From the NCBI GenBank assembly GCA_041741035.1, contig JBGSKZ010000251.1, forward strand, positions 1 to 34,079: a DNA stretch of 34,079 nucleotides, in the 5' to 3' direction. Position numbers and translations under genes: made by a program. Below are positions 1 to 33,232 of the stretch, piece after piece. Numbering within the stretch: the first letter of the stretch is position 1; every line of letters begins with the position of its first letter. The DNA is from Treponematales bacterium. Lineage in GTDB: Bacteria; Spirochaetota; Spirochaetia; Treponematales; UBA12059. The notes beneath the pieces are model-generated. The model ran no database searches and was not told the origin of the DNA. It saw nothing but the letters and a program-made list of their open reading frames with translations.

Positions 1-138
1 CAGGATGAACCCGGCGTATGCCGCGTGTTCAAGATGACCGTGCTTACGGGAATAGGCGTGGGCATTCCCAAGGCGGCGCCCTTCGTGGATCATTGGACCG
101 GCGACTCGTATAGGATGCTGGTTTCGAACCTGAAATAG
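1..138 (+). CDS. 3' end of a CDS entering from upstream of the window; product unknown
   Basis: Frame 1 is open from the window edge to TAG 136-138 (...FVDHWTGDSYRMLVSNLK*). The 45 visible residues contain no diagnostic motif. Confidence 0.35.
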   Translation, partial: QDEPGVCRVFKMTVLTGIGVGIPKAAPFVDHWTGDSYRMLVSNLK

Positions 139-350
139 GGCGCCGCTCCTGCAAGGATCATAAAAAGGATGGAAGCGCCCGGGAGGGAAGGGAAAGCTTC
201 ACTTCTCTCCCGGACAGTAGCATCAGAGCTTTACAGGCCTTCATGTCCTGTATCGATAGTGTCCGGTACTTCTACGGCTAAGGACCGCGGCTACGTAGCC
301 ATAGTCTGTGATACTGCGACGTTGAAGACCCATAAGACGGCGAGGGAACG

Positions 351-605
351 ATGAAATCCATCCATGCAGTTATTCTCGGAGTTGTAATAGGTGGCGGCCT
401 TTTCTATTGGCTGTTTGACCAGTCCATGAAGAATGAACGCTTATTCTTTTATACAATCGCTTCGTGGATCATAGGCGCTAAACCGCAAGCCGGCGATGGC
501 GCTTTTCATGTGCCGCTTGCCTGGCTTCTAATGCTTGCGCTGTCGATCGCTATGGGGGTCCTCTCGACCTGCCTGTTGAAGCGCTTTGTTATTTTCCATA
601 AATAG
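351..605 (+). CDS. small hydrophobic protein, 84 aa (predicted membrane protein)
   Basis: ATG 351 to TAG 603-605. Three hydrophobic stretches (AVILGVVIGGGLFYWLF, FFYTIASWIIGA, LAWLLMLALSIAMGVLSTCLL). No recognisable family. Confidence 0.4.
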   Translation: MKSIHAVILGVVIGGGLFYWLFDQSMKNERLFFYTIASWIIGAKPQAGDGAFHVPLAWLLMLALSIAMGVLSTCLLKRFVIFHK

Positions 606-617
606 ACGCGCCGCTTC

Positions 618-1418
618 TCATAGCGGGAGGGGAGGGCGCTCGGCTTCCTCTTTACCGCCCCGCAGCACCTTCCTTACGCCGCCGCGCGGATTTGGCGCAT
701 CGCCTGAGTAGCGCGGTATTACGTGCAGGTGCGCATGGAATACCGTCTGGCCTGCCGCCTCTCCAATATTGAAGCCTATATTATATCCGTCTGGCGCGCG
801 CGTCTTCTCGATCGCGTTCCTGGCCCTGTCCACCGCGGCCATGAGCTCGGCCCGTTCCTCGGGCGTGGCGTCGAACAGGGTAGGCGCATGGCGCTTGGGT
901 ATGAGGAGGGCGTGGCCGGGCGATACAGGGTGGGAGTCCCATATGCCGACCACGAGCTTTCCATCGTAAAAGAGCTGATCCTTTGGCAGGCCGCAGAAGG
1001 GGCAGGCAGGCCGCGTCGCGAGGCTCTCCACGACCGGCATATCGGCGGGCGCCCAGTCGAGGCCGTAGAGCTCGTCGGGCTTAAGCCAGCGTATGGCCGC
1101 GTGCTCGTTAAGGCTGGGTTCCCCCGTAATAATGCGAGCCCGGTATACATGCATGGTTATAAAAAAGCTTTCATAGCGGTGGCGCACGGTCATGAGGAAA
1201 GAGCCGGCTTGGATGCTGAGCCCCAGTTCTTCGCGTAGCTCGCGTTCCAGTGCCTCTAGGCGCGTTTCGCCTGGTTCCACCTTGCCGCCGGGGAATTCCC
1301 ACTTAAGCGGCAAGTCGCCGCCGGGCTTTCTCTGGGCGCAGAGCAGTTTCCCCTCATGCTCGATGACGGCCGCGACGACTTCGTGGCGCGGCATAGTATC
1401 CGGTATGCTTTCTTGCAT
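618..1418 (-). CDS. NUDIX hydrolase fused to a HIT-family (histidine triad) nucleotide hydrolase/transferase domain
   Basis: 266-aa ORF. The N-terminal half carries a Nudix box (GGKVEPGETRLEALERELREELGL = GX5EX7REUXEEXGU). The C-terminal half carries CPFC plus GHALLIPKRH and the histidine triad HAHLHVIP. Stop TGA 618-620. Confidence 0.85.
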   Translation of the reverse strand: MQESIPDTMPRHEVVAAVIEHEGKLLCAQRKPGGDLPLKWEFPGGKVEPGETRLEALERELREELGLSIQAGSFLMTVRHRYESFFITMHVYRARIITGEPSLNEHAAIRWLKPDELYGLDWAPADMPVVESLATRPACPFCGLPKDQLFYDGKLVVGIWDSHPVSPGHALLIPKRHAPTLFDATPEERAELMAAVDRARNAIEKTRAPDGYNIGFNIGEAAGQTVFHAHLHVIPRYSGDAPNPRGGVRKVLRGGKEEAERPPLPL

Positions 1419-1611
1419 GTTCAGTAGCGTACACCATGCCTACTACTGTGTCTATTCGGGATGGGGGGCAGGCAAAGATGGACAGTCAAGTGGGCAAATT
1501 ATCCGTCCGTAGCCATGCTTATCTAGATATTGCATGTACTGACGGGCACTATTGCGCCAACCGTATGCCGGAATGTGCGCTATAATGGATATGGAGCTCG
1601 AGGAGGCAGCC

Positions 1612-2970
1612 ATGGCGCATAACACCATCAAATCGAGCTACGCGACCCTGACGGAACGGCTCAATCGCTTCCCGCAGGGCGCGCCGCCCTCAGACCTGCT
1701 GTTCGCCATACTAAGGCAGCTTTTCAGCGAGAAGGAGGCCGGCATGGTCTCCCTGCTGCCGATCAGGCCTTTTGACGCGGCTAGGGCCGCCGCCATCTGG
1801 CGGACGACGCCGGCCGAGGCAAAAAAGACGCTGGACGAACTGGCAAGCCGGGCGCTGCTCATCGACACCGAGCGCGAAGGAAATACGACCTATTGCCTCC
1901 CGCCGCCCATGGCCGGATTCTTCGAGTTCTCGATGATGCGCGTTAGGAGCGACCTGGATCAGAAGGCCCTGGCCGAAATGTTCTATCAATACATGAATGT
2001 GGAAGAAGACTTTATCAAGGCGCTGTTCACGGAGGGCCAGACCCAGCTCGGCCGGGTGTTCGTCCAGGAACCCATGCTGCCAAGGCGATCCGGCCCGCAG
2101 GATACGGCCGATAAAAAAGCGCCTGGGACGGTGCGCTTCACGAGCCTGGAACCTGCGCCCGGAGACCGTGACCTTCTGGTGCTCGATTACGAGCGCGCCA
2201 GCGAAGTTATCAAGACGGCCTCGCATATCGGCGTAGGCATGTGCTACTGCCGCCATAAGATGATGCACCTGGGCCGGGCCTGCGACGCGCCCATAGACAT
2301 CTGCATGACGTTTAATAGCTCCGCTGAATCGCTGACCAGGCACGGGCATGCACGCGCGATAAGCGTTGCCGAGTGCATGGCGCTGCTCGATACCGCGTAC
2401 GAGCGCGGGCTTGTGCAGTTCGGCGAAAACGTGCAGAGGCGCGTCAACTTCATCTGCAATTGCTGCGGCTGCTGCTGCGAGGCGCTTATCGCCCAGCGCC
2501 GCTTCGGCATGCTGCATCCGGTGCATACCACCAACTGGATACCGCAGGTTCTCGAGGAAAAATGCACCGGCTGCGGCAAGTGCGTCGATGCCTGCCCCGT
2601 CGAAGCGATGGCGCTGGTATCGGCTGAGGATCCCAAGCATCCGAAGCTGCGGAAAGCCAAGGTCCTTGATAACGCGTGCCTAGGCTGCGGCGTATGCGTA
2701 CGCGCCTGCAAGACCGGCGCGCTATCGCTTCGCGCGCGGCCCGGGCGCGTGCTTACGCCCGTCGATTCGACCCACCGCGCGGTGATCATGGCCATCGAGC
2801 GCGGGAAGCTTCAGAACCTGATCTTCGATAACGGCGCCCTGGCGAGCCACCGCGCCATGGCAGCCATACTGGGGGTTATCCTGCGCTTGCCGCCGATTAA
2901 ACAAGCTATGGCCAGCGAGCAGATGAAGAGCAAGTACCTGCTGAAGCTGCTGTCGCTCGTCAAGCCTTAG
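1612..2970 (+). CDS. cysteine-rich Fe-S protein with two 4Fe-4S ferredoxin-type motifs
   Basis: The frame is open from 1552. ATG 1612 is preferred because AGGAGG (1601-1606) lies 5 nt upstream and TATAAT sits at 1581-1586. Motifs: CTGCGKCVDACP, CLGCGVCVRACK, a CNCCGCCC cluster and CYCRHK..C..C. Stop TAG 2968-2970. Confidence 0.8.
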   Translation: MAHNTIKSSYATLTERLNRFPQGAPPSDLLFAILRQLFSEKEAGMVSLLPIRPFDAARAAAIWRTTPAEAKKTLDELASRALLIDTEREGNTTYCLPPPMAGFFEFSMMRVRSDLDQKALAEMFYQYMNVEEDFIKALFTEGQTQLGRVFVQEPMLPRRSGPQDTADKKAPGTVRFTSLEPAPGDRDLLVLDYERASEVIKTASHIGVGMCYCRHKMMHLGRACDAPIDICMTFNSSAESLTRHGHARAISVAECMALLDTAYERGLVQFGENVQRRVNFICNCCGCCCEALIAQRRFGMLHPVHTTNWIPQVLEEKCTGCGKCVDACPVEAMALVSAEDPKHPKLRKAKVLDNACLGCGVCVRACKTGALSLRARPGRVLTPVDSTHRAVIMAIERGKLQNLIFDNGALASHRAMAAILGVILRLPPIKQAMASEQMKSKYLLKLLSLVKP

Positions 2971-3038
2971 GCTCGGCCGTGAAGATCGGCTTAACCAACG
3001 CGGGCCAGCGCAGAGCATCATCTCTCTTATTAAGGTCC

Positions 3039-4292
3039 ATGGGCCGAATATCCGCGCGCGCCGCCCTCGGCGATCCCCTCGTACGGCTGGCGTCGGCTAT
3101 TCTCCAGCCCTACCGGGCCAATCAGGAACAGCGCGAGCTTGTCGCGAAGGGCTATGCCCAGCTATTCCCCGATTCAACGGAGCCGAGTGACCAGGCTAGG
3201 CGCATGCGGCGCAATCCCATAGGACAGGTGCGGAAGCTCGTTTTAGAGTGCACGACGCGCTGCAACTATTCCTGCAAGCATTGCTACAATTCCGGCGTGG
3301 AGCGCGTCACCGAGACGAGGCTCGATGCCCTATCGGCCGCCATCGATACCTTCGCCGGATTAGGGCTAAGGGAGTTCGCTTTCATAGGCGGCGAAGTAAG
3401 CAAGTATGGCGACGGTTGGCTGGGCTTGGCGCGGAAGGCGAGGGACTCGGGGGCGGCCATCGTGAGCGTGCTCAGTAACGGCTGGTTCCTTGGCGGGTCT
3501 GCCTTCGTGGCCGCCGGGCAGCGCTATGCCGATGATGGCGCGTACCTTCGGGAGCTAAAGGCGCACGGTATTACCCATATCTCCTTCAGCATCGATGGCC
3601 GCGGCCTAGCCCATGATGCGTCCCGCGGCATGCCAGGTTCGTATGCTCGTATACTCAAGGGCTTCGAAACGGTACTCGACGCCGGCCTTCAGCCTCGGGT
3701 TTCGCTCCTCGCGCGAAGCGGCAGCCGCGAAGGGGTACTCAGGCATTTCGAAGAGCTATCGATGCGCATGTACAGGAAGGATGCCGGCGCGGCCTCGCTG
3801 TTCTTCGACAATACCAACGCCATCAACGATTTCGTAGACCTTGGGAACCATGAAGAGCCCGAGGGCGGCCCTGCGGCAGAAGCCTTCGGCTACGCGCTAA
3901 GTGCGCTGCGCTGTCCCGGCTTTTATCGGCCGTCCCCGCAGCTCACCTTAAAGGCCAATGGCCAACTGGCCACCTGCCGCCTCGCCGACGCGGGCGAGGG
4001 CTACGGGAATATCCATGAGCGGCCGCTGCTTGATATCCTCAATAGCATGCACGACAGCTTTATATACCAGCTGCACGCCGAGCGGAGGATAGGCGATTAC
4101 CTTCGATTCGTAAACCCGCATATCTTCGGCAGCCGCTTCGCGCATCTATGCGCCCTCCGGGCCGTCTGCACGATGATAGCCCGCCGCATGCACGAGTGGG
4201 ACGTCGAGCCCGACGATGCCGCGGGCGTGGCGCGGATAAATAAAGAGGTGGCAGCCGTTACGGGTCGAATCATGGCTCCTTCCGCGTCTTGA
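3039..4292 (+). CDS. radical SAM protein
   Basis: CX3CX2C motif in LECTTRCNYSCKHCYN. The start is ambiguous: ATG 3039, or GTG 2979 (the ORF-track start), whose GTG overlaps an in-frame TGA of the upstream frame. Stop TGA 4290-4292. Confidence 0.8.
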   Translation: MGRISARAALGDPLVRLASAILQPYRANQEQRELVAKGYAQLFPDSTEPSDQARRMRRNPIGQVRKLVLECTTRCNYSCKHCYNSGVERVTETRLDALSAAIDTFAGLGLREFAFIGGEVSKYGDGWLGLARKARDSGAAIVSVLSNGWFLGGSAFVAAGQRYADDGAYLRELKAHGITHISFSIDGRGLAHDASRGMPGSYARILKGFETVLDAGLQPRVSLLARSGSREGVLRHFEELSMRMYRKDAGAASLFFDNTNAINDFVDLGNHEEPEGGPAAEAFGYALSALRCPGFYRPSPQLTLKANGQLATCRLADAGEGYGNIHERPLLDILNSMHDSFIYQLHAERRIGDYLRFVNPHIFGSRFAHLCALRAVCTMIARRMHEWDVEPDDAAGVARINKEVAAVTGRIMAPSAS

Positions 4293-4333
4293 AGCCTGCC
4301 CTGATTTGATAATTGCAGCTCTTCTGAAGTATA

Positions 4334-5977
4334 ATGATTACTATGATAGTCAAATTAAGAACGGGTTTTCGTACGCGTTTTTTGGGCTTAGCCCTCGCGT
4401 TGACGCTTGGAAGCTTCCATGCCTTTGGACAGGGCACCCAGGGACAGCCCTTCGCTATGGGTATTAACCTTGGCGGATTGGCCGATTGGGGCACGGAACT
4501 GCCTTTCGTGGACCTTATGAAAAACGCGCGGCAGTGGTATACCAAGGATCAGGGAAATCCCCGGGAGCCTTGGAACTCTGAACAAATCGGCGGCATTCGG
4601 CTACGGCCCGATGGCTACCCTCTGGAAATCCCCCAGATGGTATCAAGCGCCCAGTATCCCCAAGAGGTCGCGACCATATGGGCCGTGACCGATGGCTGGC
4701 CGCGGGGGACCTACGCCGTTTTATACGACGGCGAGGGCGAGCTTACCTTTTCCGGCTCTCCCCAGAGGGTTCAGGCGCTAAGCCCGGGCAAACTTACCTT
4801 CGATCTGCCGGAGCCCAAGGGCGGCCAGGTTGAAATGCGAATCCGCCGCTCGGCCAAGGCTGATCCGGTGCGAAATATTCGGGTTTTAATGCCGGGCTCC
4901 GAGCGTACTTACCTGGACCAGCCTTTTAATCCCCTGTGGATTCAAAAGGTGAGGGCCTTTGGCTCGGTACGCTTTATGGATTGGGGCAGTACCAACAGCT
5001 GGGGCCAGGCAGAGCCTTGGCAGTGGGAGGGCACGGTCCAGCTAGGCTGGGAGCAGCGGGCTAGGATGGATTACTACACCTGGGCAACGCCCAAGGGCAT
5101 ACCCTACGAGATGATGATCAGGCTCATGAACGACTATGACCTTGACGGCTGGGTGTGTATCCCCCATGTGGCCAATCCCGCCTATGCCGAGGAAATGGGG
5201 CGGCTGTTCGCGCGCGGCCTTGAGCCTGGCAGAGCCTTGACGGTGGAGTTCTCCAATGAGTTATGGAACTGGATGTTCGGCCAGACCCAGTGGCTAAACC
5301 GGTATGGCGACCAGGCCGAGCCTTGGCCCGAGCGGATAGTCCCGTATATCCAAACAGCCTTGGATTCCTTTACGAAGGGCTTCGGCGGCGCGTCCGCCAG
5401 GCTTAAGAGGGTGGTTGGCGTCCAAACCGCCTGGCTCGATGTGAGCCAGCGCATCGTCAGATCCATTGATCGCGCCAGCATAGACGCCGTCGCCCCGGCT
5501 TGGTATTTTGGCCTCAGCGAGGAGGCCGACGCGGCCTTGGATGCCTTGGGCCGCCGCGCCGCCGTTGGCGATATTGCCCGCCTCGTTAGGGCAAATTGGG
5601 AGGCCAATGAAAAACGCTGGATTAGCGATATCAGAGATCAGCTTGCGAGTCCCCTCAATCTGCCGCTGGCTTTTTATGAGGGTGGCCAGCATTTGACGGC
5701 GCATCCCTTTGGCGAAGAGCCAAGCTACGCCCAAGCTCTACTGGATATACAGCGGGCGCCTGAAATGCGGGCCTTGTATACTGAGTGGCTCACCTGGCTG
5801 TCCGGCCTGCAGAGTCCCCAGGACCCCCCGCTGGTCCTCATGCATTTTAGCCTGGTTGCGTCGCTGAGCGCCCGTTATGGAAGCTGGGGGCTCCTGGAAA
5901 CCCTAGACCAGGACCTGAAGCTTGTTCCGGCTCCGAAGTGGTCTGCCTTGGAACCCTACATCAAAAAGGTTCCTTGA
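4334..5977 (+). CDS. secreted protein, possibly a clan GH-A (TIM-barrel) glycoside-hydrolase-like enzyme
   Basis: 547-aa ORF 42 nt after the radical SAM stop. N-terminal signal peptide (KLRTGFRTRFLGLALALTLGSFHAFG-QG). An Asn-Glu motif in a beta-strand context (LTVEFSNELWNW) resembles the acid/base NE of clan GH-A. The function is inferred only. Confidence 0.65.
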   Translation: MITMIVKLRTGFRTRFLGLALALTLGSFHAFGQGTQGQPFAMGINLGGLADWGTELPFVDLMKNARQWYTKDQGNPREPWNSEQIGGIRLRPDGYPLEIPQMVSSAQYPQEVATIWAVTDGWPRGTYAVLYDGEGELTFSGSPQRVQALSPGKLTFDLPEPKGGQVEMRIRRSAKADPVRNIRVLMPGSERTYLDQPFNPLWIQKVRAFGSVRFMDWGSTNSWGQAEPWQWEGTVQLGWEQRARMDYYTWATPKGIPYEMMIRLMNDYDLDGWVCIPHVANPAYAEEMGRLFARGLEPGRALTVEFSNELWNWMFGQTQWLNRYGDQAEPWPERIVPYIQTALDSFTKGFGGASARLKRVVGVQTAWLDVSQRIVRSIDRASIDAVAPAWYFGLSEEADAALDALGRRAAVGDIARLVRANWEANEKRWISDIRDQLASPLNLPLAFYEGGQHLTAHPFGEEPSYAQALLDIQRAPEMRALYTEWLTWLSGLQSPQDPPLVLMHFSLVASLSARYGSWGLLETLDQDLKLVPAPKWSALEPYIKKVP

Positions 5978-5990
5978 GAGGACGGCTTAT

Positions 5991-6265
5991 TTATAGCTCT
6001 GCCGGCTCATCCTCGTAGCCAGCGCGGCCAAGCTTCTCAGTCCCTCCCCGCAGCACCTTCCTGACACCGCCGCGCGGATTGGCCACGTCTCCGGCGTAGC
6101 GCGGGATTACGTGCAGATGCAGATGGAAGACCGTCTGTCAAGCCGCCTCCCCTATATTGAAGCCCACGTTATAGCCATCGGGCGCGCGTGTCTTCTCGAT
6201 CGCGTTTCTGGCTATGTCCACCGCTACCATGAGCTCGGCCCGTTCTGCTGGCGTAGCGTCGAACA
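5991..6265 (-). pseudogene. 5'-truncated HIT-domain gene fragment, paralogous to the 3' end of 618..1418
   Basis: The nucleotide sequence roughly 6040-6262 is alignable by eye with roughly 640-905. It translates as QVFDATPAERAELMVAVDIARNAIEKTRAPDGYNVGFNIGEAA*QTVFHLHLHVIPRYAGD.... An in-frame TGA (6138-6140) replaces the Gly codon of GQTVFH. Homology stops abruptly at about 6265, where base composition changes. Confidence 0.75.
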
Positions 6266-6606
6266 CTTGTCATTCTTTAGCCAAAGTTCAAGCGCCCTAA
6301 TTCGATTTACCCTTGAGTATACGAACGACCTCCTGGCAACGATTCATGCCCAGGAAAACGTCCGCGCATTCAAAGCTGACGATGGGTGCCTTGTTAAATA
6401 TCATTGGCTTGCCTACTCTTGGTAAACGAGGTAAGCTAGTTGACCAAAATGGAAGTATCTTCCTCACATTACCTTGCCTTACCACAGGTATGTCAGTCGG
6501 AACTGCCGTTCAGGTTAATTGATTCCAATGCCGGGCATGTAGCCTGATCAGCGAAAAGAATATATGATACCAATCAGAGTGCAGCCATTACAGAACCTGG
6601 GGGCAA

Positions 6607-7308
6607 ATGATGGCAACTGCTGAAGTCCAAAAATCGATACTCCTGGTTGAGGACGACGCCATAGTTGCCATGTCAGAAAAAACGGCCCTTGAAGAATACG
6701 GATATGCCGTATGTACCGTGAATTCCGGTGAGAAGGCGATCCAGGCTTTCAAGGAAGCCAGCACTTTCGATCTGGTATTGATGGATATCAACCTGGGACA
6801 GGGTCTAGATGGAACGGAAACCGCGAAATTGATCCTGATGGATCAGGATATCCCTATAGTATTCCTGTCGAGCCACACAGGGCCTGAAACAGTTGAAAAA
6901 ACTGAGAAAATTACTTCTTACGGCTATGTAGTCAAAAACTCCTCCATTACTGTCCTGGATGCATCCATAAAGATGGTCTTCAAGCTATTCGGTGCAAAGA
7001 AGCAGATGGCCCAGGCGGCTGAGCAATTCAGGGCAATAGTCGAAAACACCTCTGATTGTATCGTCCGTTACAACCGGGAAGTACGACCTGTCTACGGTAA
7101 TCCATCGATACTTACAGCCTTGGGCATCTCCCTTGAACAGTTTGTGGGGAAGAGTCACCGCGAACTTGGCTTTCCCGAAAATTGGTGCCTGCTTTGGGAT
7201 ACTGCGATCGGTGGAGTGTTCCAGACCGGGATCCCAACAACGATAGAATCAGAGGTGGTGCTTGCCCGGGGAGAACTGATCAAGAAGCCTTTTGACCTGT
7301 ACATCTAG
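6607..7308 (+). CDS. response regulator receiver (REC) + PAS protein, ended by a TAG that is in frame with 7309..7542
   Basis: REC motifs: ILLVEDDAIV...DLVLMDINLGQGLDG...PIVFLSSH. PAS-like: FRAIVENTSDCIVRYNREVRPVYGNPSILTALGISLEQFVGKSH. TAG at 7306-7308. Confidence 0.75.
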   Translation: MMATAEVQKSILLVEDDAIVAMSEKTALEEYGYAVCTVNSGEKAIQAFKEASTFDLVLMDINLGQGLDGTETAKLILMDQDIPIVFLSSHTGPETVEKTEKITSYGYVVKNSSITVLDASIKMVFKLFGAKKQMAQAAEQFRAIVENTSDCIVRYNREVRPVYGNPSILTALGISLEQFVGKSHRELGFPENWCLLWDTAIGGVFQTGIPTTIESEVVLARGELIKKPFDLYI

Positions 7309-7542
7309 CCAGAGTATCGGGACAAATATTACCTGCACCGCAGGCAATTGTTCCTGACTGGCACCCTGCAGGACTGCGGATTGCACATGCGGCGGCAGGA
7401 CGGTAGCGCCTTTTTTGCAGTTCTGAGGGCAACCAGGGCAGAGGATGATGACGGCGAACCTGTATGCCTCGTGGTTGCGATGGAATTGGAGCACAATGAG
7501 CCAGGGAGAGCTGGATTCGGGGATGATAAGCCTGGAATTTAG
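7309..7542 (+). other. in-frame continuation of the REC-PAS ORF beyond the amber codon (PAS C-terminal-like segment)
   Basis: Same frame as 6607..7308 and open for 77 codons (PEYRDKYY...HMRRQDGSAFFAVLRATRAEDDDGEPVCLVVAMEL). It ends TAG 7540-7542, then GGA, then TGA 7546-7548, which overlaps ATG 7545. Confidence 0.5.
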
Positions 7543-7544
7543 GG

Positions 7545-8501
7545 ATGAAAAAGGAAAGGCGTACCATGAAAGAAGAAATCAAAGCCGATGAAGAGGCTAC
7601 GCCACCGGATGACAGCTTCCCGATAGTGGGCATCGGCGCATCGGCCGGGGGGCTGGCAGCTTTCGAAGCCTTCTTTTCAGGCCTGCCCGCCGAGCTTGAC
7701 CCCGGCATGGCCTTTATCCTGGTGCAACACCTGGCTCCGGATCACAAGAGCATCCTGACTGACCTTGTCAGGCGATATACACGGATGCAGGTCTTTGAGG
7801 TCGAAGACGGCATGAAGGTCCAGGTCAATTGTGCGTATATCATCCCGCCTGGCTATGACATGGCCTTCATCAACGGTTGCCTGCAATTGCTTGAGCCCAG
7901 CGCCCCCCATGGTCTGCGCCTGCCCATAGACTTCTTCTTTCGATCCCTGGCCCAGGACCAGCGGGAACGTTCTATCGGCATAGTGTTGTCCGGATCCGGC
8001 TCGGATGGCAGTCTCGGCGTGCGTTCGATCAAGGGAGAAGGTGGCATGGTGATGGCCCAGTGTCCGGAGAGTGCCGAGTATGACGGGATGCCCAGAAGTG
8101 CCATAGCCACCGGCATGGTTGATTTTGAATTGCCGCCCGCCGAGATGCCGGCTTCGTTGATGGCCTTCACTGCTCAAGCCTTCGGAAAAATATCAATGCA
8201 AAGCATGCCAACGAGTGAAAAATCGAATACCTTGAAGAAAATTTTCATCCTGCTTCGGGACGGGACTGGTCACGATTTTTCACAGTACAAGCCAAGCACC
8301 ATCCTGCGGCGGATCGAACGGCGCATGGCTGTACATCAGATCGCCAGTATACATGCATATGTCAGGTACCTGCAGCAGAACAAGCCTGAAATCGACGCGC
8401 TGTTCCGTGATCTGCTGATCGGTGTGACCAACTTCTTCCGCGATCCCGAAGCTTTTGCCGAGCTCGAGACGAAGATTATCCCGAAAATTTTCGAAGGTTA
8501 G
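7545..8501 (+). CDS. CheB-type methylesterase domain plus the N-terminal part of CheR; 5' portion of a CheB/CheR-PAS-histidine kinase gene split by an in-frame TAG
   Basis: CheB-like: FPIVGIGASAGGLAAFEAFF...ILVQHLAPDH...VLSGSGSDGSLG...EYDGMPRSAI. CheR N-domain: GHDFSQYKPSTILRRIERRM...NFFRDPEAF. TAG 8499-8501 is in the same frame as 8502..10817. Confidence 0.85.
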   Translation: MKKERRTMKEEIKADEEATPPDDSFPIVGIGASAGGLAAFEAFFSGLPAELDPGMAFILVQHLAPDHKSILTDLVRRYTRMQVFEVEDGMKVQVNCAYIIPPGYDMAFINGCLQLLEPSAPHGLRLPIDFFFRSLAQDQRERSIGIVLSGSGSDGSLGVRSIKGEGGMVMAQCPESAEYDGMPRSAIATGMVDFELPPAEMPASLMAFTAQAFGKISMQSMPTSEKSNTLKKIFILLRDGTGHDFSQYKPSTILRRIERRMAVHQIASIHAYVRYLQQNKPEIDALFRDLLIGVTNFFRDPEAFAELETKIIPKIFEG

Positions 8502-10817
8502 GAAGCAGGCTCAGTCATCCGTGTCTGGTCTTCCGGGTGTTCCACGGGGGAAGAAGCCTATTCCATCGCAATGCTCCTGGTAGAGGGCATGGAAAAAGCC
8601 AAACAAAAGTTTACCCTTCAGGTTTTTGCTACTGACATCGACTCCCAGGCCATAGCCGTTGCCAGGTCCGGGACCTATCCTGCGAGTATAGCGATGGACA
8701 TCACTGAGGAACGATTGTCCCGCTTTTTTACCCCGGAGCCTTCCATGCTGGATGAAAAACCCCTTTCGTACCGCATCAACAAGAGCATACGTGATTTACT
8801 GATCTTCTCGGAGCAGGACGTATTACGGGATCCTCCGTTCTCGAGGCTGGACCTCATCAGCTGCCGCAATCTCATGATATACCTGGACGGGGATTTGCAG
8901 AAGAAACTCATTCAGCGCTTCCACTATGCCTTGAATCCAGATGGCCTACTTTTTCTTGGTACCTCCGAAACAGTCGGTGAGTCTGCCGATCTCTTTGCAG
9001 TCCTGGACCGAAAGGCCAGGCTGTACCAACGCAAGAAGAATACTTCCAGTACCGGCAACTCGTTCCCCGGCGCTTATCTCGCAGCCCGCAAGACTCCGGA
9101 TGAGGTACGACCTGGTTATGTAGGAAAAAATATGAAAGCCGATAAAATTTCGTTGAAGGAACTTGCAGAACAGACGCTGTTGAAGAGGCTTGCGCCGTCA
9201 AGTGCCCTGGTGAACGGCCAGGGCGACATCTTCTACCTTCATGGCCGCACCGGCATGTACCTGGAGCCGCCTACTGGTGAAGTCGGTGCATACAATATTC
9301 TGAGCATGGCCCGGGAAGGCTTGACGAACGAGCTTGCTACGGCGCTTCGCAAGGCTGTCCATACCGGAGACATCGTCCGCTGTCCTGGGCTCCGGGTGAA
9401 GACAAATGCCCATTTTACACCAGTGGACCTGAGCATCTGCCCTGTCGGGAATGATTCCGGGGATTCCTCTTCCCCAGTCCTGTATCTGGTCCTGCTGCAG
9501 GAAGGGCAGGAGATCGAGACTGGGCATGATCAGGACCTTGCCTTGCAGACAGGCAGCCCGGAAGACAGCATCATCATTTCCCTGAAGCAGGAACTGAGGG
9601 CAAAGGAAGAATACCTGCAGAGTGCCAATGAAGAACTGGAGACTGCCAACGAGGAGCTTAAGTCATCCAATGAAGAAATGCAGTCAGTCAACGAGGAACT
9701 TCAATCCACCAATGAGGAGCTGGAAACCTCAAGGGAGGAATTGCAGTCGGTGAACGAGGAACTGGCAACGGTCAATACCGAACTTCAGAGCAAAGTGGCC
9801 GACCTGTCAATCATCAACAACGATATGAACAACCTCCTGTCTGGTACCGGCATAGCTACCGTCTTCGTCGACCATCAGATGTGTATCCTGCGCTATACAC
9901 CGACAGTAACCGTGATAATTAACCTGGTCAAAGGAGATGTCGGGCGTCCCATTCACCACTTTGTCAACAATCTGGTCGGTTACGAGACCATGATAGAAGA
10001 TATCCAGGCGGTGCTGGATACCCTGATCCCCAAAGAACTGGATGTGGTAACCATGCATGGAATCTGGTTCACCATGCGTATCCAGCCGTACCGCACGATA
10101 GATAACATCATCGAGGGTGCCGTGATCAACTTCGTGGATATCACCGATCGGAAACAGGCGGAAGACAAAGTGGGGCTCCTGCTTTCCGAGAAGGAACTCA
10201 TTCTCAGGGAAGTCAATCATCGCATCAAGAACAACATGTGCACCATGAAGGCCATGCTTGACCTGCAAGCCAGGGGCATGGCTGACAAGAAAGCCTCTGC
10301 CGCCCTGCTGGATGCCAGCAGCCGCATGCACAGCATGGAAATCCTGTATGACAAACTGTACCAGTCCAGCAACTTCTCGGAGCTATCGGTCAGGGAGTAC
10401 CTGTCCTTCCTGGTTGACGGGATTACGAGAAACTATTCAGGTGTACTGAATCTGACTGTTGTAAAACAATTTGACGATTTCATCCTTGATGCCGAGCGTT
10501 TACAGCCCCTGGGCATCATCATCAACGAACTGCTGACCAACGCGATGAAATACGCCTTTATAGGCAGGCCCAGTGGGGTGGTCAAGGTGGAAGCAGGTCT
10601 TGTTGGAGGCAGGGTTTCAGTGGCCGTCGCGGATGACGGCAAGGGCATGCCGGAATCCATCGATTTTGAAAATTCCACGGGCTTTGGCCTGATGCTTGTG
10701 CAAGGCTTGGCAATGCAGATAAAGGCAAGCACCCGGATAGAACGGGAGAAGGGAACCAGGATTAGCCTGGAGTTCGATCTGAACCACCCCGGGTTTACCG
10801 GAGACCGTATTATCTGA
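8502..10817 (+). CDS. CheR methyltransferase core, coiled coil, PAS and HisKA_2/HWE-type histidine kinase; 3' portion of the split CheB/CheR-PAS-HK gene
   Basis: Directly after the TAG the frame reads EAGSVIRVWSSGCSTGEEAYSIAMLL, the canonical CheR SAM-binding motif. The first ATG is at 8571 (the ORF-track start). Also present: an NEEL heptad coiled coil (about 9600-9800), a PAS segment, EVNHRIKNNM (HisKA_2 H-box) and an ATPase with DDGKGMP and GFGLMLV. Stop TGA 10815-10817. Confidence 0.85.
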   Translation, partial: EAGSVIRVWSSGCSTGEEAYSIAMLLVEGMEKAKQKFTLQVFATDIDSQAIAVARSGTYPASIAMDITEERLSRFFTPEPSMLDEKPLSYRINKSIRDLLIFSEQDVLRDPPFSRLDLISCRNLMIYLDGDLQKKLIQRFHYALNPDGLLFLGTSETVGESADLFAVLDRKARLYQRKKNTSSTGNSFPGAYLAARKTPDEVRPGYVGKNMKADKISLKELAEQTLLKRLAPSSALVNGQGDIFYLHGRTGMYLEPPTGEVGAYNILSMAREGLTNELATALRKAVHTGDIVRCPGLRVKTNAHFTPVDLSICPVGNDSGDSSSPVLYLVLLQEGQEIETGHDQDLALQTGSPEDSIIISLKQELRAKEEYLQSANEELETANEELKSSNEEMQSVNEELQSTNEELETSREELQSVNEELATVNTELQSKVADLSIINNDMNNLLSGTGIATVFVDHQMCILRYTPTVTVIINLVKGDVGRPIHHFVNNLVGYETMIEDIQAVLDTLIPKELDVVTMHGIWFTMRIQPYRTIDNIIEGAVINFVDITDRKQAEDKVGLLLSEKELILREVNHRIKNNMCTMKAMLDLQARGMADKKASAALLDASSRMHSMEILYDKLYQSSNFSELSVREYLSFLVDGITRNYSGVLNLTVVKQFDDFILDAERLQPLGIIINELLTNAMKYAFIGRPSGVVKVEAGLVGGRVSVAVADDGKGMPESIDFENSTGFGLMLVQGLAMQIKASTRIEREKGTRISLEFDLNHPGFTGDRII

Positions 10818-11257: not shown

Positions 11258-12793
11258 CTACGAAGGGAGGGCAGAGCCTTCAGCCGGCAGGGAGAAATAA
11301 AAGGTGGCGCCTGCGCCTTCTTCTCCTTCAGCCCAGACTGTACCGCCATGGCGCCTGACTATCCTTTCGACAATTGACAGTCCGATACCGGTGCCGGCAA
11401 AATCGCTGGTGGAGTGGAGGCGCTGGAAAACGCCGAACAGCTTGTGTGCGTAAGCAGGATTGAATCCCACTCCGTTGTCCTGCACTGAAAAAATAGTGAA
11501 ATTGGCTTCGCAGAGGCCCTTGATGCTTATTCTGCGTTCACTCCTGGGCTTGGTGAACTTTACTGCGTTCATGATCAGATTTGTCCAGACTTGATACAGC
11601 AGCAGGCTGTCTCCATGAACGGCAGGCAATTCGTCCATGGTTATTTCAAGCTCCCCATCTGCTTCCGTTTCCGTAATCTTCTCGACAATCGATTTTACCA
11701 GGGCCTGCATGTCCACGACCTGCTTCCGGAAATCCGAGCGTGTGTACCTGGAAAGGGAAAGCAGGGCAGATATCAGGCTGCCCATATGCTGCACTCCCGC
11801 TCGGATTTCATCCAGGAATCCAAGGCCCTTGTCGCCCAGGATGCCAGAAAAATCTTCTGCAAGCATGGCCGAGTATCCATCTATGGTGCGCAGTGGAGCT
11901 CGAAGGTCATGTGAAACCGAATACGAGAAAGATTCCAGTTCTTTATTCGCATATTCAAGCTCTCTTGTCCGATCGGCTACCCGCTGTTCCAATTCAGAAT
12001 TGAGACGAAGGATTTCGTCCTCCGCCTGTTTTCGCTGTGTTATATCCCTGACATTGCATTGCATGATGTCCCGGTGGTTTACCCGGTAAACAGTTCGGAC
12101 GACTTCGACGGCAAGGCTTTTGCCTGCCTTGCTTGTCACATACTTGATGACGGTGGTGTTGTATATCTGGAAGTCATGAACAGGTTGATCCGGCAGTATG
12201 CAGGCAATGGCATCCTGTGAAGCAAGCTCAAATGTTTTCATGCCAAGATACTCATCAGGCGAGGTTTCAAGGAGCTTTGCCAAGGCGGGATTAATATCGA
12301 TGATCCTGTTGCTCTGGAGATCAATGATCAGTATGCCGTCCTGGGCGGTCTCGAAAAGTCGGCGGTACTTTATTTCAGACGCACGGAGGTTGTCCTCCCG
12401 CATTTCAAGATGGACCTTGATCCTGGATCTGACTACATCCGGATCAATAGGTTTAGCGATGAAATCGACAGCTCCGACTACGAATCCTTCCTGTTCGGTC
12501 GTGGTCCTGTCGGTGGCGGACATGAATATAACCGGTATGGTCGATCCTTCTTCATCCTGTTTGATCCTGCGGCAGGTCTCGAAGCCATCCATGCCGGGCA
12601 TGGAGATATCCAGGAGGATCAGGTCTGGATGAGGAGCGGCTCTTGCGATCTTCAGGCCTTCTTCTCCGCTGGTTGCGATCTTTATCCGGTAATCGGCCTT
12701 GAGCACTTCCTTGAGTACCACGATGGAATCGGGAACATCATCCACGATGAGTACGGTTTTTTTTAGCTCCGGCAATCCAGGTGACTTTCTCAT
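11258..12793 (-). CDS. REC-PAS-histidine kinase (HisKA + HATPase_c)
   Basis: REC: VLIVDDVPD...DLILLDISMPGMDGFE. PAS segment present. H-box: SFSYSVSHDLRAPLRTI. ATPase: NLIMNAVKFT, DNGVGF, GTGIGLSIV. Its ATG overlaps the upstream TAA by 1 nt (TAATG). Stop TAG 11258-11260. Confidence 0.9.
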   Translation of the reverse strand: MRKSPGLPELKKTVLIVDDVPDSIVVLKEVLKADYRIKIATSGEEGLKIARAAPHPDLILLDISMPGMDGFETCRRIKQDEEGSTIPVIFMSATDRTTTEQEGFVVGAVDFIAKPIDPDVVRSRIKVHLEMREDNLRASEIKYRRLFETAQDGILIIDLQSNRIIDINPALAKLLETSPDEYLGMKTFELASQDAIACILPDQPVHDFQIYNTTVIKYVTSKAGKSLAVEVVRTVYRVNHRDIMQCNVRDITQRKQAEDEILRLNSELEQRVADRTRELEYANKELESFSYSVSHDLRAPLRTIDGYSAMLAEDFSGILGDKGLGFLDEIRAGVQHMGSLISALLSLSRYTRSDFRKQVVDMQALVKSIVEKITETEADGELEITMDELPAVHGDSLLLYQVWTNLIMNAVKFTKPRSERRISIKGLCEANFTIFSVQDNGVGFNPAYAHKLFGVFQRLHSTSDFAGTGIGLSIVERIVRRHGGTVWAEGEEGAGATFYFSLPAEGSALPS

Positions 12794-16870: not shown

Positions 16871-17936
16871 GGAAGGCCTCCCGTGATTTTCCGGCAAGGG
16901 ATGAAAGCAGAGTGGCAATGCACTCCGGAGAAAGGATATACCTAGCTGCTTGGATTTTGTTTGCTTCTCCAGGCATACCATAGACCACCGAGCTTTTCTC
17001 ATCCTGGGCTATGGTGAGTGCGCCTGCTTCCTTCATGGCTTTCAGTTCGTCTGCGCCATCCCGCCCCATGCCGGTCAGCAGGACACCTGCTGCCTGGGAG
17101 CCAGACTCGATCAGAACGGATCGGAAGAGGTGCCCCACTGAAGGGCGTATCCCGTTATAGACAGCTGAATGTTCACATAATTGTATACGCATTCCGCCCT
17201 GGACTCCCAGATGGTAGCCGTCAGGGGCGACATAGGCACGGCCAGGTGAAATGGCTTGGCCTTGTGTGGCGATACGTACCGGAAAGCCTGATGCTCCGGA
17301 CAACCATTCTGCAAATCCCTGGACGAAGCCCTCCGCTATATGCTGGGCTATGAGTATGGGCAGGGGAAAATCATGCGCCAAACCGGAGAGCAGATTCTTA
17401 AGGGCAAGGGGACCGCCGGTGGAGGCGCCTATGGCAACGATCCTGATTCCGGAACTGGCTTCATACTCTTTCAGGGGCATTGTATGTCCTGGAATGCATC
17501 CCGGATCGCGTCGGGGGATCCTCCGTACGACTTTTATTTCAGACATCATCTTCACGGTGTGCAGCAGTTCTCTTGCCAGCGATCCGGATGATCCATCATG
17601 GAAACCAGGAGGACGCAGAACCACCGCGAGAGCCCCGGCTTCCAGGGCCTGGAAGGTGAAGGCAAGCTCTTCCATCACCGTGTTACCGCTGACTACCACA
17701 ATCGGGACGGGTGAAGTTTCCATTATACGGCGGGTTGCTTCCAGCCCGTCCATGACCGGCATGTTTATATCCATGGTCACGACCGATGGACGAAGCAGTC
17801 TGGCAGCCCGTACGGCTTCTTCTCCGTTATGGGCCAGTCCCGCGATCTCAAAATCCGGGTCGGATCTGAAGATATGCGCGAGGAATTCCCGGATGACCGG
17901 TGAATCTTCAACGATGAGGACCCTGATGGGCTTCAT
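16860..17936 (-). CDS. cheB: chemotaxis response regulator protein-glutamate methylesterase CheB (REC + methylesterase)
   Basis: REC: [12 protein letters not shown]...[12 protein letters not shown]. Esterase: [40 protein letters not shown]. Its ATG overlaps the cheA stop as ATGA. Confidence 0.9.
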
Positions 17937-18864: not shown

Positions 18865-20184
18865 TTATGTTGCCCCGAGGGCGGTGATTTTCTCATGCAC
18901 GATCGGAAGACCCAGGCCTCTGCCTGAAATATCGGTGAGCATCGTGCTGGTCGAGACGCCGGACTGGAAAATGAGCTTGACCGCTTCCCCGGATTCCAGG
19001 GCATCAATGGTTTCTTTGGGGAAGATCCCTGCTTTGATGGCAGCGGATCGGACCTGGGCCTGGTCAATGCCTTCGCCATCGTCTGATACTCGTAGTTCCA
19101 TCCGTTGACTGTCAATCGCGGTAAAGGCGGCGGTAATGGTTCCCCTGGGCGGCTTGCCCTGTTTGCAGCGCTTGTCGGCAGCAAGCATGCCATGATCCAC
19201 ACAATTGCGTATCAGATGGATCAGGGGATCCTTCAATCCATCCAGCACCCGCTTGTCACACGCAAGATCGTCACCGTGTATGACCAGATCCACTGCCTTG
19301 CCCTGGTCGCGCGCAAGGTCCCGAACCAGTACCGGGAACAGCTGCATCAGGCTTGCTGCCGGCAGCATCAGGGCTCCTCTCATGTTTTCAAGATGTTCAT
19401 CCACCAACCGGTCCAGCTGGTACCGGTTCTGCGACGAGGCCTGGGTCATTGTAGTCATGCGGTCCTGGAAGCCATCCAGAATGGACTCACATCGGTCATG
19501 CCACCCTTCATCACGCATGTTCATGGCAGAGGCCCCGCTGGCCTTCCGTTGCGAGGCTTCATGTTTCCAGGTCTGCAGGTCCTGACATATGGCATTCAGT
19601 TCCATCGCCTGGTGACGGGCTGTCATCTTGAGTGCCACCAGCTCCTCAGCCTGGTGCATGAGCTCATCCAGCCGTTCGAGGGGCAGGCGCACGGTGCTTT
19701 TTTCAAGCAGCTTCATTTCCGCGACAGGAGGAAGTACGACAGTGTCATTGTCATTTGCTTCTGGGGAGGCTTCGCCGGTAATTGCCCTGTCCAGATCCTT
19801 GACAACCTCCTTTGCCTGTTCCTGGTCCGGGATCGTACCCTCCAGGTCGGGAGTCGAAATTATCCTGGCAATGAGGTCGATGCTCCTGTGCAGTACGTCG
19901 AAACGGGCGGGTGTAGGCACGATTGAACCTAGTTTCAGGGCGGAGAAGACAGCCTCCAGGGGCCGGCAGATCGATTCGACCAGCTTGAGGCTGACTGAAC
20001 GGGCTGCTCCTTTCAGGCTGTGGGTTTCCCTGAATACCTGCTCGGTCAGTCTGGTCCAGGTTGCGGGATCCGGTGACTGTTCCATGCCAATCAGGCAATC
20101 CGATATGGACTGGATATGCTCGTCCGCCTCGGCCCGGAAGGTGGTTCTGAGGTGTTTCAGGAATTCACGATCACTGGTGCCCAT
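18865..20184 (-). CDS. cheA: CheA N-terminal portion (Hpt, dimerisation, ATPase up to the G2 box), ending prematurely through a frameshift
   Basis: Hpt: ETHSLKGAARSV. N-box: HLIRNCVDHG. G1: SDDGEGID. G2: GRGLGLPIVHEKITALG, then AT*. The protein continues in the other frame (see 17933..18862). Confidence 0.85.
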   Translation of the reverse strand: MGTSDREFLKHLRTTFRAEADEHIQSISDCLIGMEQSPDPATWTRLTEQVFRETHSLKGAARSVSLKLVESICRPLEAVFSALKLGSIVPTPARFDVLHRSIDLIARIISTPDLEGTIPDQEQAKEVVKDLDRAITGEASPEANDNDTVVLPPVAEMKLLEKSTVRLPLERLDELMHQAEELVALKMTARHQAMELNAICQDLQTWKHEASQRKASGASAMNMRDEGWHDRCESILDGFQDRMTTMTQASSQNRYQLDRLVDEHLENMRGALMLPAASLMQLFPVLVRDLARDQGKAVDLVIHGDDLACDKRVLDGLKDPLIHLIRNCVDHGMLAADKRCKQGKPPRGTITAAFTAIDSQRMELRVSDDGEGIDQAQVRSAAIKAGIFPKETIDALESGEAVKLIFQSGVSTSTMLTDISGRGLGLPIVHEKITALGAT

Positions 20185-20203: not shown

Positions 20204-20812
20204 CTATCCAAGTTCATCGTTTACGACCAACGCTTCGTCTCCGAGGATTTTTGCCGCGTCGAGGATGAAGCCTCCGGAATGAATCCTGGCTATGTACCCC
20301 GCAGCTGATCCGGCCAACGCCTGTAAAGGGGGCCGGGTATCCTGGTATGGAATGCTCCGTGTTCCCAGGATACGATCCGCCAGAATCCCGAGTTCCATGA
20401 CCCCATCGCTCAGGATGAGTATCCTGTTCAATTCACCAAGCCCCCTTGACGGTACTTTGAGCAGTTCCCTCAGATCAACCAGTGCCAGTACATGCCCGCG
20501 TATATTGGTGATGCCGGCAATGAAGGATGGAATCCCGGGCAGCGATGTCAGGTTCTTCAGTGGATGAACCTCCCGGACAAATCGGCACTCCATGGCGTAG
20601 ACACTGGCAGCCAGACTGAATTCGATGATGTTCATGCATTGCCCCTCGATAGGGCCTGAATCCAGGGGCTTGGCGAGTTCCCGTGCCCTTTCTTGAAGGA
20701 TACGGTCCGGTTCGGCTGGAGAAGCTCCTGGTCCATGATCCAGAGCAGTCTTCAGTGCTTCGATCCGGGCCCGTATCGCGTCCCAGTCTGTGTCCCCCAA
20801 GGTTCCACTCAT
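20204..20812 (-). CDS. cheW: CheW-like coupling protein with an N-terminal extension
   Basis: 202 aa. CheW fold motifs: IIEFSLAASVYAMECRFVREV...PGIPSFIAGITNIRGHVLALVDLRELL. Its ATG overlaps the mcp stop as ATGA. Stop TAG 20204-20206, 19 nt before the cheA ATG. Confidence 0.85.
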   Translation of the reverse strand: MSGTLGDTDWDAIRARIEALKTALDHGPGASPAEPDRILQERARELAKPLDSGPIEGQCMNIIEFSLAASVYAMECRFVREVHPLKNLTSLPGIPSFIAGITNIRGHVLALVDLRELLKVPSRGLGELNRILILSDGVMELGILADRILGTRSIPYQDTRPPLQALAGSAAGYIARIHSGGFILDAAKILGDEALVVNDELG

Positions 20813-22863: not shown

Positions 22864-24359
22864 GGTACCTCCATATAGTACCGTTGCGTGGAGCCCAACG
22901 GTGCATGCTTCCTCATGGTAGCGGATAGTAGTTCCCTGAACCGCCCCACGGTCAGGCCTCCGGCTTCGGGAAGGATTTCGTCATCCGGCCATTGGGCAAG
23001 CAAGGTCAGTGTGTTTCTGAGCCAGCGGATGCCCGTTGGCCTGTCGCCGGTGCGCAGTGCCAGGTTGCCAAGCATGAAACTGGCCACCAGGGACTGCGGA
23101 TCCAGATACAGAGCCTTCTTCAGCGATGCCGTGGCCTCCGCATCCCGGTTGAGTTCCTGGAGTATCGCCGCCTCCAGGAAGTGGAAGCGGGCGTTCACCC
23201 TGTCATTACTGATCAAGGTCCGGCACAGTGCCAGGGCCTCATCAAGATGCCCTGCATCGGCAAGTTCCTGTACGCTGAGCTCCTCCAATGGTGTGGACTC
23301 CGGCAAAGGTCGGGCGGGCATGCCCACCGGTCCGGTAGTACTGGCTGGTATTGCGGCGGTGACCGCTTTAGTTTTGGGCTTTTCACGGTCCCGGGAGTTC
23401 TTTCCGGCGCTCCTGTGATGCTCCGTGGCAGGGTGCTTCAACGGGGTCTTCGCCAGAGGCTTGGGGTGTACGGCTGCAGGTGCCATGTGAGGCGGTGTCG
23501 CTGTACCAGGCATACCTTTACGGTATGCTGTAGCCTCGGGGAAGGAGACTACCTCAAAGCCTCTGAACAAGACCTGGGAACATTCACAGGCAGCCGGTAT
23601 CATCCATCCCCCATCGACAAGAGACAATCCCATTCTTTCCACAATCCAGCGCGCGCGGTCGGGGGTGAAATACATGAGTACATTCCTGCAGAATATGATA
23701 TCCATGGCAGTCGTATCATTGAGGGTGGATGGATACATGCCGTCGGCAAGGTTCAGATACGAGAACATGACCATGGAACGCACCGCCGGAATGACCGTTC
23801 GTTTCTTCCTCCCGGCATCCAGGAAGTAGTCTGCCGTCAGCCAATCCGGGGCATTCCTGAACGACCACTCCCCATAGGTTCCGAGTTCTGCCTTCCTGAG
23901 CGTTGAGGGGTTTATGTCCGTAGCCAGGATGGTGATGTTCCAGTTGTCGACGGTGGGCAGGCCCCGCCGGAGGGCTATGGCGATGGAATACGCCTCGTCC
24001 CCGGACGAACAGCCGGCACACCAGAGCCGGAGTATCCTGTTGCCTTGGGCTTCCTTTCCCTGGATCAAACCAGGCAGGATTGATCCTTCCAGGGCATCGA
24101 ACACCCGGGGTTCACGCCAGAAATAGGTCTCGCTGGTGGTCAGCTGGCCTGCAAGGATCTCCTTTCGCTCTTCGGTGACAGGGGATGACATGAGTTCCTG
24201 GCTGAACGCAGCCGCATCAGGGTATCCCAGCAGTTTCGCCGCTACCCCGACCCCTGCTTCAAGCTCGCCCCAACGGGGCGGGGGGAAATGCAGTGCCAGC
24301 TGTGCCTCGATGAATTCACTGAGCCGTGCAAGCTGGTGTCCCGGGAGTATATGCTTCAT
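22860..24359 (-). CDS. cheR: CheR-type protein-glutamate O-methyltransferase with a C-terminal TPR-like extension
   Basis: Motifs: ETYFWREPRVF and LRLWCAGCSSGDEAYSIAIAL. The C-terminal 130 aa are helical-repeat-like (LDEALALCRTLISNDRVNARFHFLEAAILQEL...). ATGA overlaps occur at both ends. Confidence 0.9.
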   Translation of the reverse strand: MKHILPGHQLARLSEFIEAQLALHFPPPRWGELEAGVGVAAKLLGYPDAAAFSQELMSSPVTEERKEILAGQLTTSETYFWREPRVFDALEGSILPGLIQGKEAQGNRILRLWCAGCSSGDEAYSIAIALRRGLPTVDNWNITILATDINPSTLRKAELGTYGEWSFRNAPDWLTADYFLDAGRKKRTVIPAVRSMVMFSYLNLADGMYPSTLNDTTAMDIIFCRNVLMYFTPDRARWIVERMGLSLVDGGWMIPAACECSQVLFRGFEVVSFPEATAYRKGMPGTATPPHMAPAAVHPKPLAKTPLKHPATEHHRSAGKNSRDREKPKTKAVTAAIPASTTGPVGMPARPLPESTPLEELSVQELADAGHLDEALALCRTLISNDRVNARFHFLEAAILQELNRDAEATASLKKALYLDPQSLVASFMLGNLALRTGDRPTGIRWLRNTLTLLAQWPDDEILPEAGGLTVGRFRELLSATMRKHAPLGSTQRYYMEVP

Positions 24360-32964: not shown

Positions 32965-33104
32965 CGGGCTGGGCGGATTCGGCTTCCGCGCGTCGACATC
33001 CTGTCGACAGCGCTCCAGCCCGCCTCGCTCGCTGACGGTGCCATCCCTGGCACCTTTTCGCCGCTACCGCGGCGCGCTCGCTCGGTTCGAATACGTCCAG
33101 CCCG
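32965..33104. repeat. tRNA-Pro-3'-end-derived repeat, unit A' (copy of 26781..26919)
   Basis: It starts CGGGCTGGGCGGATTCGG and ends CGGTTCGAATACGTCCAGCCCG. It differs from unit A mainly by paired (compensatory) changes in two hairpin stems. It lies 193 nt before the tRNA-Pro 3' end. Confidence 0.8.
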
Positions 33105-33111
33105 TGCGGAT

Positions 33112-33153: not shown

Positions 33154-33156
33154 ACG

Positions 33157-33229: not shown

Positions 33230-33232
33230 TAA

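Follow-up and report, generated by a model that had tools for sequence, protein, structure and literature searches.

Organization of the REC-PAS locus

Investigation of the window, the whole 34,079-nucleotide stretch of DNA analysed here, revealed a REC-PAS response regulator gene on the forward strand whose frame runs from the ATG at 6607 to 7542 and is open except for a single in-frame TAG at 7306-7308 (KKPFDLYI-stop-PEYRDKYY), exactly at the coordinates given in the initial annotation. The start codon and the upstream region of the gene are intact. The truncated open reading frame that ends at this premature TAG (6607-7308, forward strand) encodes 233 amino acids, comprising an intact receiver (REC) domain at residues 11-121, matched by the Pfam family Response_reg with 67 bits over model positions 1-110 of 111, and the front of a first PAS domain (PAS1). 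The PAS1 remnant occupies residues ~139-219 (7021-7263, forward strand), its last strands are gone, and it was recognized from orthologue alignments and from a match to positions 1-43 of 110 of Pfam PAS_4. The junction of a deletion (EVVL/ARGE) lies at about 7261-7272 on the same strand, as placed by alignment with 16 orthologues and with single-PAS relatives, and is followed, in frame and still conserved, by the remnant of a second PAS domain (PAS2) and a C-terminal tail (7264-7539, forward strand). The premature TAG is codon 234, within the PAS2 remnant and 12 codons past the junction.

Translation through the TAG would yield 311 amino acids, since the frame is open for the 77 codons between TAG 7306 and a further TAG at 7540. 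Pfam PAS_3 (positions 17-87 of 89) matches residues 222-290 of this read-through translation and spans the TAG, so the 77 codons are genuine PAS sequence, as their appearance had suggested in the initial annotation. If TAG 7306 terminates, everything past codon 234 is untranslated. The partner gene downstream, encoding a CheB/CheR-PAS-histidine kinase (7545-10817, forward strand), is interrupted by a TAG at 8499-8501 within the CheR domain.

Comparison with orthologous response regulators

A six-frame search of 60 related genomes returned many paralogous REC-PAS genes and one clear orthologue, in genome G011, where a 408-aa REC-PAS-coiled coil-PAS gene (P0002) overlaps a 1004-aa CheB/CheR fusion gene by ATGA and neither gene is interrupted. 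The REC-PAS/CheB-CheR pair was accordingly present in one of the 60 relatives, and it was absent from three genomes of the same genus. A search of a collection of 5.8 billion proteins with the G011 orthologue recovered a coherent Spirochaetota family of 386-415 amino acids; the window's own product is present in this collection as a 232-aa fragment. Related sequences are annotated as 'PAS domain S-box protein' or 'response regulator'.

The 16 orthologues (386-415 aa) all have the architecture REC, PAS, coiled coil, PAS and all are uninterrupted, which bears out the earlier proposal that TAG 7306 splits a former single gene. The column occupied by the TAG, which the initial annotation had suggested comparing among relatives, is occupied in all orthologues by a sense codon of highly variable identity (H, E, M, T, Q, I, F, D, A, C, and V in P0018). 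Regarding the possibility that the gene might naturally end at either of its two TAGs, one orthologue stops at the equivalent of 7542 and none stops near residue 233; the stop at residue 233 is premature because the orthologues do not end there.

Regarding gene order, the REC-PAS gene lies directly upstream of the CheB/CheR fusion in the window, in G011 and in the JGI metagenome contigs L026 and L027, which carry P0005, while the orthologue P0009 on contig L025 has a different downstream gene. The P0002/G011 and P0005 systems share both gene order and the layout of the stop/start junction with the window, and their regulators are 55-61% identical to the window's overall; no relative above 61% identity by which the lesions might be dated was found in the 5.8-billion-protein collection or in the genomes searched. 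Compared with this family, whose members have two complete PAS domains, the coiled coil HQxELQMQNxEL and an uninterrupted length of 386-415 aa, the window's gene has about 100 residues fewer (the end of PAS1, the S-helix linker and the start of PAS2) and a TAG at codon 234. The 77 codons past the TAG retain every residue that is invariant among the orthologues, and the frame is kept across the deletion; such conservation is predicted by read-through, and recent lesions would lead one to expect it just as much.

A further group of REC-linker-PAS proteins with a single PAS domain (P0018, P0023, P0030 and P0057, about 285-295 aa) resembles the 311-aa read-through translation in total length and is very similar in PAS2, as in P0018 (LIKQSFTTYIVPEYQDLYYLHRKKLIETGTLQTCEL) against the window (LIKKPFDLYI-stop-PEYRDKYYLHRRQLFLTGTLQDCGL), with 65-70% similarity as judged by eye. 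In these proteins PAS1 is absent, and the coiled-coil linker is present together with a complete PAS2, whereas the window has two-thirds of PAS1, no linker and a PAS2 that is truncated at its N-terminus. Membership of a natural single-PAS subfamily was rejected on this alignment, the window's gene being a deletion product.

The in-frame deletion and the fused PAS region

Relative to the 16 orthologues, about 100 codons have been lost in frame, so that PAS1 now leads from its front part into the back part of PAS2. PAS1 is missing its last strands and PAS2 its first, the coiled-coil linker HQxELQMQNxEL between them is gone, and the window runs from PAS1 (...TTIESEVVL) directly into the middle of PAS2 (ARGELIKKPFDLYI...); both parent stretches at the junction, ~7261-7272, share a similar short A-x-G/A-R-x. 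The initial annotation had described the PAS region as chimeric, with two C-terminal PAS-like halves joined around 7320-7350. A chimera of two PAS parts is indeed present; the join lies at about 7261-7272, upstream of the TAG, and the parts are the N-terminal portion of PAS1 and the C-terminal portion of PAS2. Pfam reflects this composition, with only positions 1-43 of 110 of PAS_4 matched before the join and 17-87 of 89 of PAS_3 after it.

AlphaFold, run with the orthologue alignment, predicted for the read-through chimera a PAS-like sheet formed by PAS1 strands 1-2 and PAS2 strands 3-5 (mean pLDDT 80.6, pTM 0.50), with pLDDT below 50 at the junction (residues 220-223). On this model the read-through product might fold. 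No PAS domain can form in the 233-aa product. The REC part of the model is confident and matches solved receiver domains; this domain dominated a fold search, which was uninformative for the chimeric PAS.

An intact start codon and upstream region, a complete REC domain by Pfam and a confident REC model that resembles solved receivers would also suit a gene whose stop is real and whose 233-aa product works as a shortened single-domain regulator (REC plus tail), for example as a phosphate sink. Against this, no orthologue or relative has such an architecture, all of them retaining at least one complete PAS domain; the partner CheB/CheR kinase gene is interrupted as well; and the conservation past the TAG shows that selection cannot have had time to act on so recent a truncation. 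A functional REC-only product is unlikely on this balance.

The second TAG and the junction with the CheB/CheR gene

The initial annotation had drawn attention to a second TAG close to the end of the frame and to an ATGA overlap with the next gene, comparing the latter with the coupling of genes in the che operon on the other strand. The order TAG (7540-7542), GGA, TGA (7546-7548), with the TGA overlapping the ATG at 7545-7547 as ATGA, was confirmed, and the che operon of the minus strand does contain four stop/start overlaps of 4 nt (24356-24359, 22860-22863, 20809-20812 and 17933-17936), all involving TGA.

With respect to the codon at 7540 in relatives, the L026 orthologue (P0005) has a TAG, a 2-nt spacer and the next start, its gene ending GTA TAG CC GTG AAA, which in frame reads TAG CCG TGA; the equivalent in the window is ATT TAG GG ATG AAA, with the same layout. 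The junction in G011 reads GCA TGA AAA AAA (preceded by CAA) and that in L026 GTGAAAAAG; L026 and L027 share the same gene spacing, the sequence having been read in L026. The C-terminal tails of the orthologues are unconserved and variable in length, and none in the alignment of 16 is longer than the window's. As judged from these junctions, the TAG at 7540-7542 (forward strand), 2 nt 5' of the CheB/CheR start, is the gene's ordinary, original stop and needs no special explanation.

The TGA at 7546 arises because the CheB/CheR protein begins Met-Lys-Lys in the window, G011 and L026, so that the start reads NTG-A: the start is ATG AAA in the window and G011, and GTG AAA in L026, giving GTGA. 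The ATGA at 7545-7548 (forward strand), in which the CheB/CheR start provides a TGA in the upstream frame, is therefore not evidence of read-through coupling.

Occurrence of the lesions in independent contigs

The source assembly is a fragmented metagenome-assembled genome (MAG) of 844 contigs with 5.5% contamination, which also holds near-duplicate contigs at 85-97% protein identity; its organism is an uncultured hot-spring spirochaete. In an assembly of this kind the lesions could in principle stem from sequencing or assembly errors, or from a minority allele in a population whose gene is undeleted and has a sense codon at 7306. Two runs of one study (biofilm; hot-spring sample) nevertheless yielded Logan contigs with 0 differences from the window: X1 covers all of 6600-8700, X2 covers 6600-7795 and 8003-8700 together with a short piece at 7773-7937, and both span the deletion junction and all three TAGs (7306, 7540 and 8499), at none of which a variant is listed in these assembled contigs. 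The contigs of the two samples are independent and identical through the junction and the TAGs, and the PAS1 and PAS2 DNA is too dissimilar for an assembler to have collapsed the two. The sequence cannot be put down to a quirk in the assembly of this MAG, and an artefact or minority allele is exceedingly improbable as the origin of the lesions.

Lesions across the chemosensory island

The REC-PAS gene belongs to a chemosensory island at about 6-33 kb, which has a GC content of 50-59% against a genome mean of 61% and adjoins two tRNA genes. The genes for REC-PAS, CheB/CheR and CheW are otherwise intact, each with a single in-frame TAG, within the 34-kb window. The TAG at 8499 in the CheB/CheR gene corresponds to Lys in G011 and Arg in L026, and that in the first CheW gene is codon 2 (24812-24814), directly after a strong Shine-Dalgarno sequence and an ATG; for the CheW of the che operon, no close orthologue was found in 40 relatives. 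Lesions of other kinds are also present: in CheA a run of G (about 18873-18876) carries a 1-nt frameshift that splits the gene within its ATPase domain, and a kinase remnant in the island has one frameshift and two TAA stops.

Two of the three in-frame TAGs share the context AT(C/G)-TAG-CCAG. This motif, AT(C/G)TAGCCAG, occurs in 10 copies genome-wide, three of them in the window, and the other seven are not in-frame gene interruptions, on which grounds a functional motif was rejected and the shared context is probably due to chance.

Amber decoding capacity of the genome

Recoding of TAG through pyrrolysine or amber suppression occurs in Methanosarcinales and in some Desulfobacterota and Firmicutes, and TAG recoding also occurs in phages. 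The window resembles such systems in that conserved coding sequence follows its in-frame TAG, and amber read-through or recoding had been implied in the initial annotation. A genome-wide search for RF1, tRNA(CUA) and pyl genes gave this no support, finding RF1 intact and the others not detected.

At 532 bits the RF1 gene (prfA) lies above its cut-off of 423, and it has an open frame of 383 aa with the PxT (PST) and GGQ motifs, so that loss of RF1 is rejected; RF2 is also present. In the genome, which is 94.5% complete, neither PylS (TIGR02367, best 23.5 bits against a cut-off of 178.15) nor PylD (TIGR03911, best 19.5 bits against a cut-off of 150) was detected, and a Pyl system was rejected on these negative searches; among the control genomes of the Pyl searches only Methanosarcina exceeded each family's cut-off (Methanosarcina acetivorans in the PylS search). 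ARAGORN found 39 ordinary tRNAs and, under default and relaxed settings, no tRNA(CUA). A literature search returned nothing relevant on amber suppression in spirochaetes.

Regarding stop codon usage, TAG ends 861 of 2724 coding-looking frames (about 32%). In a codon-usage model, stops flanked on both sides by coding-looking sequence make up 7.4% for TAG, 9.0% for TAA and 4.4% for TGA, and those additionally spanned by a paralogue alignment number four, five and five, respectively; in the low-GC island this model lacks sensitivity, and the window's own cases went unflagged by it. The raw BLAST screen alone is noisy because the shadow frames of paralogues also align. A genome-wide excess of in-frame TAG was rejected by the codon-usage model combined with the paralogue-spanning BLAST screen. 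Unlike the known pyrrolysine and amber-suppression systems, the window's genome is without PylS, PylD and tRNA(CUA), has an intact RF1 and uses TAG as an abundant terminator, and the in-frame TAG is not conserved in orthologues.

One tRNA-like gene in a prophage (C745:18227-18297) has a 6-nt anticodon loop, UACUAA, that contains CUA. The Rfam covariance model reads this loop as U33-ACU-A37-A38 with position 32 missing, which gives the anticodon ACU and not CUA, and scores the gene at 48.7 bits, where the normal tRNAs of the window reach about 69; the gene is at most 76% similar to host tRNAs, and, as open reading frames under alternative codes indicated, the standard code suffices to give well-formed prophage genes, with no need for TAG recoding. 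It is not a credible amber suppressor on the evidence of Rfam, prophage ORF structure and similarity to host tRNAs.

Programmed or conditional read-through of the TAGs at 7306, 8499 and CheW codon 2 would nonetheless provide full-length proteins under some conditions, the decoders being, for example, near-cognate tRNAs acting in a weak UAG-C context or the C745 tRNA-like gene. Three single TAGs in otherwise intact and conserved genes of one island, the motif shared by two of them, the CUA within the C745 loop, the preserved residues and frame past TAG 7306 and the PAS-like AlphaFold chimera of fair confidence are all in keeping with it. Set against these are the intact RF1, the absence of a Pyl system, the ordinary use of TAG as a terminator, the ACU reading and low score of the C745 gene, the sense codons of all orthologues in the TAG column, the non-TAG lesions of the island and the seven motif copies that interrupt no gene, and read-through of these TAGs is very unlikely. 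Similarly improbable is the wider proposal that conditional amber read-through, via the C745 gene or context-dependent near-cognate decoding, acts as a switch for the accessory chemosensory island; if it held, the island would be a rare example of a bacterial signalling module regulated by stop-codon suppression.

Probable pseudogenization of the REC-PAS gene

The gene has a premature stop and lacks domain parts that all orthologues possess, and the lesion is real in the DNA, as is characteristic of a pseudogene. It is very probable that a REC-PAS-PAS response regulator has recently been pseudogenized here by an in-frame deletion and a nonsense mutation. The ancestral gene would have encoded a regulator of ~400 aa with the architecture REC-PAS-coiled coil-PAS, directly upstream of the CheB/CheR-PAS-kinase gene and in translational coupling with it. 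Inactivation would have followed from two lesions, the in-frame loss of about 100 codons between the short similar stretches of PAS1 and PAS2 and a point mutation to TAG 12 codons past the resulting junction, although the order and recency of these events are inferred. Translation would stop at codon 233 and leave at most the REC domain and a non-folding PAS stub, and full-length protein is presumably not made. The 77 conserved codons past the TAG would be a recent relic, TAG 7540 the original stop and TGA 7546 a by-product of the neighbour's ATG-AAA start, the whole lying in a low-GC accessory chemosensory island that appears to be under relaxed selection, with several genes gathering lesions.

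The identity of the stops is consistent with such decay. From the codon usage of these genes, TAG is expected to make up 46-54% of single-step nonsense mutations, and three TAGs out of three have a probability of about 0.1-0.16. Three nonsense mutations over roughly 20 kb correspond, by our estimate, to neutral divergence of no more than a few tenths of a percent, and with divergence this low every gene would still look conserved downstream of its lesion. Since about half of all nonsense mutations in a GC-rich genome give TAG, clustered in-frame TAGs are not on their own evidence of amber recoding, and caution is needed in reading them so.

The finding is an ordinary decaying gene, with no sign of an unusual genetic code; the locus should be annotated as a pseudogene (deletion plus nonsense mutation) and not as a recoded gene, and its value is mainly for annotation. 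In decaying islands with unitary bacterial pseudogenes, adjacent accessory genes are likewise hit here and there by nonsense mutations, deletions and frameshifts, and the window shares with such islands the atypical composition and the adjacent tRNA genes, with no notable difference. With lesions as recent as these, each gene still looks nearly intact, and the window serves as an example of the decay of a horizontally acquired chemosensory module through several near-simultaneous lesions in genes that otherwise appear whole.

Amber codons and coding sequence integrity

The end of the REC-PAS gene has a counterpart in L026, a JGI metagenome contig in which the orthologous REC-PAS gene upstream of CheB/CheR ends in TAG-CC-GTG with an in-frame TGA one codon on (L026:3560-3575), a TAG-NNN-TGA layout identical to that at 7540-7548 of the window. 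Since the two layouts match, comparison of these sequences indicates that TAG-NNN-TGA is inherited or recurrent among the REC-PAS orthologue family. Regarding the CheB/CheR gene, orthologues keep the Met-Lys-Lys start at 7545 rather than ATG 7566. The latter is a second possible start, with AAGGAAAGG ahead of it (7545-7570).

The 10-mer AT(C/G)TAGCCAG occurs three times in the window (7303-7312 and 22587-22596 on the plus strand and 24808-24817 on the minus strand) against 0.15 copies expected, and only 10 times across the whole 3.95-Mb assembly; two copies correspond to the amber codons lying in frame in REC-PAS and in CheW, and none of the remaining copies in the whole assembly interrupts a gene. 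In the che operon's first CheW gene, the TAG directly follows the ATG (24812-24817, minus strand), the 5' end reading GGAGGAGG-7 nt-ATG-TAG-CCA, and the Pfam CheW domain starts four residues past the TAG. Initiation at TTG 24760, the canonical start that follows, would cost approximately 17 residues of this domain.

CheA is split over two successive frames (18865-18900, minus strand), the first ending in DISGRGLGLPIVHEKITALGAT at TAA 18865-18867 and the next continuing as GNITVESQPQIGTTF, which fits the loss of 1 nt in the G run 18873-18876, within the HATPase domain; the CheW and REC parts are encoded on the downstream ORF. A histidine-kinase ATPase-domain remnant on the plus strand (approximately 25400-25780), with 39% identity to the kinase at 11258-12793, has both a frameshift and two TAA codons in frame, at 25613 and at 25709.

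Prophage tRNA-like gene

The prophage tRNA-like gene on contig C745 of the same assembly (C745:18227-18297, equivalent to L018:2228-2298) scores 48.7 bits against the Rfam tRNA model and has a 6-nt anticodon loop, UACUAA, for which the covariance model assigns the anticodon ACU with position 32 absent. Its identity to host tRNAs is at most 76%.

Island composition and assembly

Because GC content falls at approximately 6 kb from about 0.60 to 0.50-0.59 (6001-33000 versus 1-6000 and 33001-34079) and reaches 0.66 where tRNA-Pro and tRNA-Asp lie as a pair (33157-33335), 6001-33000 is consistent with an acquired island adjoining tRNA genes. Several contig pairs of the assembly, including C2/C524, C88/C152, and C77/C108, encode proteins 85-97% identical, which suggests that two related strains, or duplicated regions, were placed in one bin; contamination (CheckM-type) was 5.5%.
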